Shown piece by piece: positions 27,815 through 29,135 of a stretch of DNA of 32,000 nt (the first letter of the stretch is position 1; each line of letters opens with the position of its first letter). Source of the DNA: Acaryochloris marina MBIC11017 (GTDB lineage Bacteria; Cyanobacteriota; Cyanobacteriia; Thermosynechococcales; Thermosynechococcaceae); NCBI RefSeq assembly GCF_000018105.1, contig NC_009925.1:5460001-5492000 (forward strand), in the 5' to 3' direction. Both the position numbers and the translations under genes were made by a program. The notes beneath the pieces are model-generated. The model was given only the letters and a program-made list of their open reading frames with translations, was not told the origin of the DNA and searched no databases.

Positions 27815-28738
27815 TTAATCCAAACCTTCTGGCATCATATTTGATAAAATTGGTAATGTTCCTCTCCAAAAAAATTCAGATAGCTTTAAACCAGATTCGT
27901 GTTCATTACTAAGATTAGTTGGTAAAGACCATCCAAGAGAATCATATAGACTTCTTCGGTATAAATCAAAAGTTGATTCGCAAAGACATCCAAATATCGA
28001 TGCATTTTTTAGAATGCTTTGGTAACAAATAAATACTGAAATTATACTTAATGGAAATGCCCACCAAAGCCAAATCCCCCAAAAACTAAAAATGCAGCTC
28101 CAAAAAAATAACCGAGTTGAAATATATAAATCAGATCTTGCAGATTGTAGTTCAAATTTCACTTTTTCAGGTAATAATAACCAAAGGCGTGGCCAACAAA
28201 CATTTGCATCTAAACCAAACCTACTTAATGTCTGACTCTCATGTGATCTTAGTATGTTACCTAACTTTGTAGGCATCAACATCATAGGATCTGTTGGGTA
28301 TTGTCTTAAATTTTGGTCTAAGCGAATATAAAGTTCATGCTCATCTCTTGTCAAATTACTAAGTTCTTTCTTAACAGCTAATTGCTGCCAGTGATGTTCT
28401 GCATGACTAATCAATTTTCTTTTTCGAGCAATTAAAATCTTTTTAAGAGATTGCATGTAAATAGGCCAGTATCCCTCTAGTAATCTTAAAAGAGATAAAT
28501 CGAAACTTTTGACTAAGAATGCAGAAAGTGTAATTAAAATGAAAGCAAAAATTAAAAAAATTATTTTACTAATTTCTGAATATTGATTTAGAAATAATTC
28601 AAGGGATGTTATCCCATATTTATTAATATAAGCTAATAGTCCACCAAACCAAAAAATAAAAGATGGTGCTAGAAATGAAGAAAATTGGGGGTCAGATAAT
28701 TTAGATCCGATATTGTCAATAAAATTTGTAGATATCAT
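27815..28738 (-). CDS. hypothetical 4-TM protein (2 TM, ~130-aa helical soluble region, 2 TM, ~60-aa tail)
   Basis: 307-aa ORF in the low-GC island. Hydrophobic segments are FLAPSFIFWFGGLLAYI, IIFLIFAFILITLSAFLV, LFFWSCIFSFWGIWLWWAF and PLSIISVFICY. Notable motifs are LRLLEGYWP and MPTKLGNILRSHE...FGLDANVCWPRLWLLLP. Its start is 10 nt after the upstream stop. Confidence 0.75.
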   Translation of the reverse strand: MISTNFIDNIGSKLSDPQFSSFLAPSFIFWFGGLLAYINKYGITSLELFLNQYSEISKIIFLIFAFILITLSAFLVKSFDLSLLRLLEGYWPIYMQSLKKILIARKRKLISHAEHHWQQLAVKKELSNLTRDEHELYIRLDQNLRQYPTDPMMLMPTKLGNILRSHESQTLSRFGLDANVCWPRLWLLLPEKVKFELQSARSDLYISTRLFFWSCIFSFWGIWLWWAFPLSIISVFICYQSILKNASIFGCLCESTFDLYRRSLYDSLGWSLPTNLSNEHESGLKLSEFFWRGTLPILSNMMPEGLD

Positions 28739-28748
28739 TTAAATAGTA

Positions 28749-29135
28749 CTAATTAACTGGTATTAATTCTCCATGCGTAGGGCATCTAGGTACTTTCTGT
28801 GAGCTATTTCTTTGGTACCAGATAAAATCGCCATATGGACAAATAAATTTCTTTGAGTCAATAAGTCCAATAGAATCAGGTAAATGATCGTATCCTTTAG
28901 ATACTGCGTTTAGACTTAAAAATTCAGCTACCCATTCTTTTGTTTCTTGAAAACTAACTAATAGATCTAAAAGTTGATCGTGCTGAGGTTCTCCAGAATT
29001 TATATTTTCTACTAATTGAGCTATTTTTTTATCAATTAAATAAGTGTCTTGAGAAAATAAATTTGGAAGATGCCCTCTTATGGTACATGCACATTCAAGA
29101 ATAAGTTTTGGCTCAAAATTTTTATTATAAGACAT
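28749..29135 (-). CDS. hypothetical small soluble protein with paired Cys motifs
   Basis: 128-aa ORF with no TM helix. It has exactly four Cys: CAC near the N-terminus (LECACTIRGH), and CP-x17-CPTHG at the C-terminus (FICPYGDFIWYQRNSSQKVPRCPTHGELIPVN). Confidence 0.7.
   Translation of the reverse strand: MSYNKNFEPKLILECACTIRGHLPNLFSQDTYLIDKKIAQLVENINSGEPQHDQLLDLLVSFQETKEWVAEFLSLNAVSKGYDHLPDSIGLIDSKKFICPYGDFIWYQRNSSQKVPRCPTHGELIPVN

Follow-up and report, generated by a model that had tools for sequence, protein, structure and literature searches.

What might a small cysteine-containing protein and a helical membrane protein be doing together when their genes lie ten nucleotides apart? This question is raised by a locus in a 32,000-nucleotide (nt) stretch of the Acaryochloris marina MBIC11017 genome (contig NC_009925.1, positions 5,460,001 to 5,492,000), which we refer to as the window. 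Our answer, in which we have about even confidence, is that this gene pair is the constant core of a three-part conflict system, for cell suicide or against invaders, whose third part is a caspase-superfamily protease with a sensor or switch module. The original prediction for this locus, made from the sequence alone, had proposed that the pair could be a membrane-disrupting output or a signal transducer. A membrane output is still the best-supported reading of its role, but that prediction had overlooked both the caspase-family protease context and the STAND NTPase.

The pair is laid out in the window as follows:

27815..28738, minus strand: membrane-protein gene of 307 amino acids (aa), with two helical hairpins and a conserved, predicted cytoplasmic helical domain, a putative effector (open reading frame (ORF) list, homologues, AlphaFold2 (AF2), hydropathy)
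28739..28748, minus strand: spacer of 10 nt between the stop codon of the small gene and the start codon of the membrane gene (sequence)
28749..29135, minus strand: small-protein gene of 128 aa, a putative adaptor (ORF list, AF2 model, family alignments)

The 10-nt gap, which had been taken as a sign of co-translation, is confirmed by the ORF coordinates and by the junction sequence, which reads ...AAT TAG tactatttaa ATG from the small gene into the membrane gene. In a database search the 307-aa protein matched a hypothetical Acaryochloris marina protein at 100% identity.

A conserved gene triad

We consider both ORFs to be real genes rather than chance ORFs, because the 307-aa protein has many relatives and the 128-aa protein has a homologue in the same place at nearly every related locus. 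A word-indexed search found 386 relatives of the membrane protein at E<=1e-3, and an exhaustive profile search found 6,536 cluster representatives (50% identity) at E<=1e-3 and 4,475 at <=1e-10, nearly all of them about 300-320 aa in length. A homologue scan with one genome per species gave 205 loci, and the best 80 of the 205 were analysed. They comprise 52 from Cyanobacteria, 11 from Chloroflexi, 9 from Actinomycetes, 2 from Acidobacteria, 4 from Proteobacteria/Desulfobacterota, 1 from Methanothrix and 1 unclassified. The original prediction had linked motifs of the membrane protein to unannotated proteins of actinobacteria and cyanobacteria, and the locus scan bears this out. The phyletic spread is patchy across phyla, includes the one archaeon (Methanothrix) and is enriched in filamentous and multicellular taxa.

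Using hidden Markov models (HMMs) built from the loci, we found a small-protein homologue directly upstream of the membrane gene and on the same strand in 75 of the 79 loci that have at least 500 nt of upstream sequence. The two genes overlap or are separated by 20 nt or less in 63 of these 75 loci, which supports the functional coupling that had been suspected for the pair. The third gene of the triad encodes a protease. Of the 39 loci with at least 5 kb of flanking sequence on both sides, 35 have a CHAT or C14 caspase-family protease no more than 7 kb away on either side. In all, 70 of the 80 loci have one near the module, counting any within 7 kb or elsewhere on the locus. The pair and its partner genes are conserved together, and the presence of a protease in about 90% of loci led us to reject a plain type II toxin-antitoxin reading.

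When neighbouring ORFs were clustered, the dominant partner was a protein of 1,000-1,450 aa found in 53 loci, which according to Pfam consists of TPR repeats and a C-terminal CHAT domain. Most of the other loci have a Peptidase_C14 protease, either with nSTAND1 (and a C-terminal region as in Acaryochloris), with NACHT-WD40 in an Apaf-1-like arrangement, or free. The variants that we observed are TPR-CHAT, TPR-S+TPR+CHAT, C14+nSTAND1 with a transmembrane (TM) helix, C14+NACHT+WD40, and C14 alone fused to the ribbon of the small protein, described below; Pfam bears out CHAT+TPR, Peptidase_C14+nSTAND1, C14+WD40 and C14 alone. The active sites are intact: in 38 CHAT sequences the His of the catalytic dyad is present in 100% and the Cys in 97%, and the caspase motifs SGHG and DCCYSG can be read in the Acaryochloris protein.

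The triad is kept in plasmid members (Rhodococcus and three Streptomyces) at 25-31% identity, where the RefSeq labels are "hypothetical protein" or "CHAT domain-containing protein". On the Rhodococcus opacus plasmid (locus L085, 4965-11900) the order is small, membrane, CHAT; the CHAT protein there has a TPR-S (sensor TPR) domain, and a gene for a Tle1-like phospholipase is found just upstream. At two loci where the ribbon is fused to a caspase (L009, 10927-11949, and L013, 12802-14007), genes with effector-associated domain 10 (EAD10) are located downstream of the pair and are followed by more caspase genes. These EAD10 neighbours tie the module to the EAD adaptor network.

The membrane protein

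The AF2 model of the 307-aa protein is all-helical, with a predicted local distance difference test (pLDDT) score of 92.7 and a predicted template modelling (pTM) score of 0.86. Its helices span residues 17-41, 55-78, 191-222 and 227-267 and are followed by a helical C-terminal region. Hydropathy gives a strong segment at 58-76, a weaker helix at about 20-38 and a Trp-rich hairpin at about 205-246. The model and the hydropathy agree on the two TM hairpins that had been proposed, and the helical region between them is ~125 residues long. Residues 78-205 contain 19 Lys or Arg, and the short N-terminus and the first loop have one each. Because this distribution follows the positive-inside rule, the conserved middle domain is predicted to be in the cytoplasm.

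The motifs that the original prediction had singled out are all present: LRLLEGYWP (84-92), LMPTKLGNILRSHE (154-167) and FGLDANVCWPRLWLLLP (174-190). Across the family the invariant residues are E88-G89-Y90, P148, G160-N161, E167, C181, L185-W186, D258 and P273, with R184, R201, R261 and E279 nearly invariant. The invariant residues are concentrated in the cytoplasmic domain and where it meets the membrane.

We found no match to the membrane protein in Pfam, NCBIfam or PADLOC, and scanning 27 members of the family singly against Pfam gave no accepted match. Profile searches of PDB sequences found nothing significant, nor did Foldseek searches of the model against the PDB and BFVD (viral), in which no match had E<0.1; the best fold match was TolQ (E=0.14, TM-score <=0.23). 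No relative was found encoded in phage genomes. Two candidate matches were discarded: one to Sld5 (E=0.05) in library scans of the pair and a neighbouring 442-aa protein was considered noise, and one to AI-2E_transport in a single family member was considered a match of TM composition.

Two variants of the protein were noted in the course of the searches. In three independent metagenomic contigs (L090, 2842-4317, and also L091 and L092), a second copy of the membrane domain directly follows a canonical small and membrane pair and is fused behind an N-terminal domain of ~190 aa that has a weak, sub-threshold TRADD-N-like match (protein P0111). The membrane domain of P0111 stands at the C-terminal "effector position", where the effectors of conflict systems usually sit. 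On the Ralstonia solanacearum megaplasmid (L086, 6545-7723) there is a distant full-length relative of 392 aa, represented by about 19 Ralstonia records, that keeps the motifs EGY.WP, LPT.FGN.LR..E, AWPRL and FDLY. An unrelated 134-aa gene is upstream of it, and a TPR+GT41 glycosyltransferase is on the opposite strand.

The small protein and its natural fusions

The AF2 model of the small protein (pLDDT 77) has a four-helix N-terminal domain at about residues 9-80, a linker at 80-91 that is its sole disordered stretch (pLDDT <50), and a C-terminal zinc-ribbon-like beta hairpin at 95-127, with strands at 95-98, 105-108 and 125-127. Hydropathy gives no hydrophobic TM helix. A word-indexed database search found 2 proteins with the single sequence and 31 with a profile, and the family was collected by tblastn and HMM searches of the loci.

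The protein has exactly four Cys (C14, C16, C99 and C118), arranged as ECAC ... CP-x17-CPTHG, in agreement with the original prediction. That these four form a zinc site in two pairs is contradicted by the family alignments, in which the N-terminal CAC is not conserved and is usually GAR or AAR. Only C99 and C118 of the four are conserved (each 75/75), together with H121 (65, with Asp instead in 8). The second ribbon position is Cys in 39 members or Gly in 26, then Asp in 41. Gly-Asp takes the place of the second ribbon Cys in about a third of members, among them Acaryochloris, whose ribbon has C99, D103, C118 and H121. Should this ribbon bind metal, the ligands would be Cys-Asp-Cys-His, and one canonical ligand is missing.

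The linker also contains a conserved motif, [KR]-[GS]-[YFW]-x-x-L-[PA]-G, which in Acaryochloris is K80-G81-Y82..L85-P86. In about 77 members the counts are 53 for [KR], 56 for [GS], 65 for [YFW], 67 for L, 72 for [PA] and 74 for G.

The small protein had no match in Pfam, NCBIfam or PADLOC, and 27 family members scanned singly against Pfam gave none except one weak rubredoxin-like match. Searches of the PDB with sequence profiles, and with the model in Foldseek, gave nothing significant. The top fold and profile matches, all non-significant, were of the rubredoxin-like type. Rubredoxin-like zinc ribbons such as those of rubrerythrin and LapB have the same layout, with a short beta hairpin of two knuckles (ligands of the type C-x2-C ... 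C-x2-H) after a helical domain, but the similarity of the small protein to them is not significant and its second Cys is often Gly-Asp.

Natural fusions indicate which parts of the small protein belong together. At five loci (L002, L009, L010, L013 and L014), a C14 caspase replaces the helical domain and the ribbon and a KGF-x-x-LPG motif are kept; the fusion in L010 reads ...TAKGFEPLPG...CPEPDC...CSIH. In Candidatus Thiomargarita nelsonii (L067, 8517-9947), the whole small protein is fused behind a ParA/MinD-like ATPase with a KGGVGR motif that matches the PADLOC defence candidate PDC-M28B, with CHAT genes upstream. In a cyanobacterial metagenome-assembled genome (protein P0038; L093, 2721-3983), the membrane protein has, fused in frame to its N-terminus, an acidic region together with the linker motif and an intact ribbon (CPVPGC...CEEH), a single example that a lost stop codon could explain. 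From these fusions we infer that the motif and ribbon together form a constant unit, which acts with the membrane protein at its cytoplasmic side, and that the helical domain is probably an exchangeable connector to the protease. Two other fusions of small and membrane proteins (P0226 and P0268) lack the second half of the ribbon and look like frameshift artefacts, and a SnoaL fusion (P0206) was disregarded as a single case.

The Acaryochloris cassette and its other genes

Three further features in the window accompany the pair:

26841..27620, no strand assigned: probable IS6/IS240-like insertion sequence (IS) remnant of 780 bp, one copy (direct repeat mapped from locus L081)
29368..30696, minus strand: gene for a 442-aa protein with a signal or anchor segment at its N-terminus, accessory to the caspase-nSTAND1 subtype (ORF, hydropathy)
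30806..32000, minus strand: C-terminal part of a 1013-aa Peptidase_C14 caspase plus nSTAND1 NTPase, cut by the end of the window (open frame, L081)

The 342-aa ORF listed at 30806..31834 is incomplete, as its frame is open up to position 32000. It is the C-terminal third of a 1013-aa A. marina protein, seen in full at a locus from another genome of the species (L081) that is identical to the window over the region aligned. According to Pfam, the full gene encodes a Peptidase_C14 domain, an nSTAND1 NTPase, one TM helix and a C-terminal domain. The ~240-aa domain after the TM helix is presumably extracytoplasmic, which makes this an unusual membrane-anchored STAND protein.

The order in the operon is caspase-nSTAND1, 442-aa gene, 128-aa gene and 307-aa gene, and no terminator-like site was found on the minus strand between the four. 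The 442-aa protein has a hydrophobic segment at 11-29 and no family match in Pfam, NCBIfam or PADLOC. Its homologues occur only beside caspase-nSTAND1(-TM) genes (loci L005 and L006), and it may be a partner of the extracytoplasmic domain of the caspase-nSTAND1 protein. At two loci (L003 and L004) an SLH-domain protein fills the slot of the 442-aa gene; kinship between the two was rejected, as the similarity is not significant.

The four-gene cassette spans 6 kb and has a guanine-plus-cytosine (GC) content of 0.31, compared to 0.45-0.51 in its flanks; within the window, the last 4 kb have 28-33% GC and the rest about 45%. It is bracketed by direct repeats of 780 bp that are 97.6% identical (L081, 3873-4652 and 11119-11898). 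By colinear offset (window = 38739 - L081), one copy maps to the position given above, and the second is past the end of the window, upstream of the caspase gene. The repeats contain a weak DDE_Tnp_IS240 match (E=2.9e-4) and zinc-ribbon transposase-like ORF fragments, and the transposase reading frame is split into fragments of 50-61 aa, so they are probably IS6/IS240-like remnants that are no longer mobile. Given the low GC and the bracketing IS-like repeats, the cassette was horizontally acquired and resembles an old insertion brought about by an IS.

A further stretch of low GC (0.335 in 24001-25000) is found next to a 203-aa ORF at 24920..25531 on the minus strand, which has a lipoprotein-like N-terminus and no family match. 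This ORF is located between housekeeping genes and a histone-deacetylase-family gene (25714..26715).

Comparison with known protease-linked systems

In the characterised protease-effector modules, the protein linked to the protease is a latent death effector that is freed by site-specific cleavage. EACC1 and Pepco are protease-linked pore-formers released by cleavage, as are gasdermins, and a 2025 survey of protease-effector modules lists ten effector families (PMC12642450). The membrane protein and protease of our triad share two features with this class, conserved adjacency to the protease across diverse taxa and interchangeable sensor or switch fusions.

A close parallel is the EACC1-caspase system (System 4 of Kaur et al. 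2020), whose EACC1 was shown in a 2025 preprint by Evans et al. to be a pore-former activated by cleavage. In this system a small constant membrane component is located beside a caspase with variable sensor/STAND modules, and which occurs in similar taxa: actinomycetes, cyanobacteria and other multicellular bacteria. The caspase domains of Acaryochloris and of the fused proteins have "caspase, EACC1-associated type" (caspase_w_EACC1) as their best NCBIfam match, at 77 and 102 bits respectively against a cut-off of 140. EACC1, however, consists of a single protein whose one conserved TM helix carries a Gly-rich patch, and here there are two proteins, one soluble with a ribbon and the other a ~305-aa membrane protein that has two helical hairpins. 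With four hydrophobic helices in the membrane protein, none in the small one and no match to the EACC1 model, membership of EACC1 was ruled out.

Bacterial gasdermin operons also place a membrane-targeting protein beside CHAT, caspase or other proteases, and the predicted logic is the same. Gasdermins are soluble and beta-rich and do not insert until a C-terminal peptide has been removed by cleavage, whereas the protein described here is all-helical, has predicted constitutive membrane hairpins and comes with a separate small partner. The all-helical model, the lack of a Pfam match and the lack of a Foldseek match in the PDB at E<0.1 rule out gasdermin membership.

The Caspase and TPR repeat-associated (CATRA) ternary systems (Burroughs & Aravind 2020) also have three parts, TPR+caspase, the small CATASP and a third protein, and are phyletically restricted conflict systems. 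Their TPR+caspase component has a counterpart in the 53 loci with TPR followed by CHAT. In the CATRA operons compared, the third component is CATRA-N+CATRA-C with a variable enzymatic effector (for example GT4) behind it and no annotated TM segments, whereas ours is a fixed membrane protein of ~305 aa with no appended effector; the comparison with CATRA-N/C is by description only. In those operons CATASP is often divergently transcribed and our small gene is co-directional and coupled, a distinction that is likewise by description, so the two could be identical. Craspase (type III-E, Csx29/Csx30) resembles the triad in having TPR followed by CHAT and a small neighbouring protein, which in that system is the target of the protease. 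The best NCBIfam match of the neighbouring CHAT domains is indeed Csx29, at 36-64 bits against a cut-off of 300, but the partner proteins are unrelated to Csx30, Csx31 or RpoE. With scores so far below the cut-off, and no CRISPR or gRAMP genes in the loci, membership of Craspase was ruled out.

No description of the triad was found in the literature searched, which excluded Burroughs & Aravind 2020 and Nicastro et al. 2023. The system appears to be unnamed in the resources queried, and it appears to be a two-protein, helical-membrane type of the protease-effector paradigm.

A possible mechanism and the alternatives

The pair is constant, the proteases beside it are intact and their sensors vary; we therefore favour a protease-gated membrane effector. 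We propose that translational coupling would provide the small and membrane proteins in a fixed ratio, and that the ribbon-like hairpin and the [KR]-[GS]-[YFW]-x-x-L-[PA]-G motif would dock on the membrane protein at its conserved cytoplasmic domain. The exchangeable adaptor that links the pair to the protease would be the N-terminal helical domain of the small protein; the small protein may tether the protease to the membrane protein, silence the membrane protein, or both. Once a STAND or TPR sensor is triggered, the active protease would cleave either the exposed linker of the small protein, where the K/R-G-aromatic stretch is a candidate site, or the membrane protein itself. The conserved basic-aromatic motif in the disordered linker and the intact catalytic dyads are indirect pointers to such site-specific cleavage. 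Cleavage would let the membrane protein enter a membrane-damaging state, and the cell would be killed or arrested. The context is that of a conflict system, with STAND NTPases, EAD10, TPR-S, PDC-M28B, plasmid copies, an IS-flanked low-GC cassette and a patchy distribution.

The pair could instead be a membrane sensor or anchor that detects envelope perturbation, such as phage entry, and recruits or activates the protease, which would then be the real effector and degrade cellular proteins. We consider this unlikely. The constancy of the pair and its highly conserved cytoplasmic face are as expected for a signalling platform, the caspase-nSTAND1 protein of Acaryochloris is itself membrane-anchored, and proteases can be terminal effectors, as in PCaspase (cited in PMC12642450). 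However, the proteases already hold varying sensor or switch modules (TPR, TPR-S, nSTAND1, NACHT-WD40), and the part that varies in a conflict system is usually the sensor. In P0111, moreover, the membrane domain is behind an adaptor-like N-terminal domain, at the effector position. The history of EACC1 is instructive on both sides, as it was initially predicted to be just such a membrane sensor (PMC7159879) and this was later overturned in favour of a pore-forming effector (PMC12642450). The membrane protein could also be a latent membrane-bound enzyme acting on lipids or envelope precursors, with the small protein as a regulatory or inhibitory subunit and the protease licensing it, as for the MBL and alpha/beta-hydrolase zymogens. 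Activation of zymogens by linked proteases is documented (PMC12642450), the fold is predicted with confidence and has no known match, and the cytoplasmic domain has polar invariant or near-invariant residues (E88, N161, E167, C181, R184, R201, D258, R261 and E279). Searches of the PDB, BFVD and Pfam, however, found no catalytic motif or similarity to an enzyme fold, and C181 is lost in the distant Ralstonia branch, so we regard an enzyme as quite unlikely.

Several observations weigh against a protease-gated effector. Conservation of the membrane protein peaks at polar and aromatic cytoplasmic residues, which is atypical for a simple pore-former and would also fit an enzyme or a binding or docking platform. 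The linker motif may be a docking motif rather than a cleavage site, because it is kept beside the ribbon even when a caspase is fused, and the putative role of either protein as a protease substrate is read from gene context. About 10% of the well-flanked loci have no protease. In the Ralstonia branch neither the ribbon partner nor a protease is nearby, so the superfamily is wider than the triad. The association with protease type also needs care. Coarse average-linkage clustering of the membrane proteins did not resolve protease types, and in the nearest-neighbour test used instead the nearest relative of a C14-linked membrane protein was also C14-linked in 16 of 17 cases (permutation mean 4, maximum 11), a result that suggests co-evolution of effector and protease type but is inflated by close relatives. 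Finally, no known defence genes are adjacent to the pair in Acaryochloris and no PADLOC model matches it. This last point, together with the enrichment in filamentous and multicellular lineages, would agree with a triad that is a module of regulated proteolysis in the development or membrane homeostasis of filamentous bacteria, with the pair as membrane substrate or regulator, comparable to the CHAT-family proteases in cyanobacterial differentiation. We find such a housekeeping role very unlikely, given that the cassette is IS-flanked and low in GC, that there are plasmid copies and tandem paralogues, that the phyletic pattern is patchy and includes an archaeon, that protease and sensor partners are swapped between loci, and that there are links to EAD10, STAND, TPR-S and the PDC candidate.

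Significance

Returning to the protease-gated effector, a stronger form of the proposal, which we put forward tentatively and with somewhat less than even confidence, is that the ~305-aa protein is the founding member of a new and very large family: helical executioners that act at the membrane, have a fold not seen in the PDB, are checked or addressed by a dedicated zinc-ribbon adaptor and are fired by caspase or CHAT proteases. If true, this would be an eleventh, two-protein type of protease-gated death effector, parallel in function to gasdermin but evolutionarily and structurally unrelated to it. The proteases that fire it would include bacterial Apaf-1-like caspase-STAND-WD40 proteins, and the effector would occur in bacteria as well as in at least one archaeon.

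The gating of effectors by proteases is coming to be seen as a dominant principle of immunity in prokaryotes, and as the evolutionary background to the eukaryotic caspase, gasdermin and apoptosome pathways. The pair is absent from the effector families recognised by profiles, yet it is large (about 6,500 representatives) and is tightly linked to CHAT and caspase proteases in the multicellular bacteria that hold the closest relatives of Apaf-1. If the membrane protein is an executioner, it would add a mechanism of membrane damage, a new fold and a design of adaptor plus effector, and it would give a function to hypothetical proteins in thousands of genomes.

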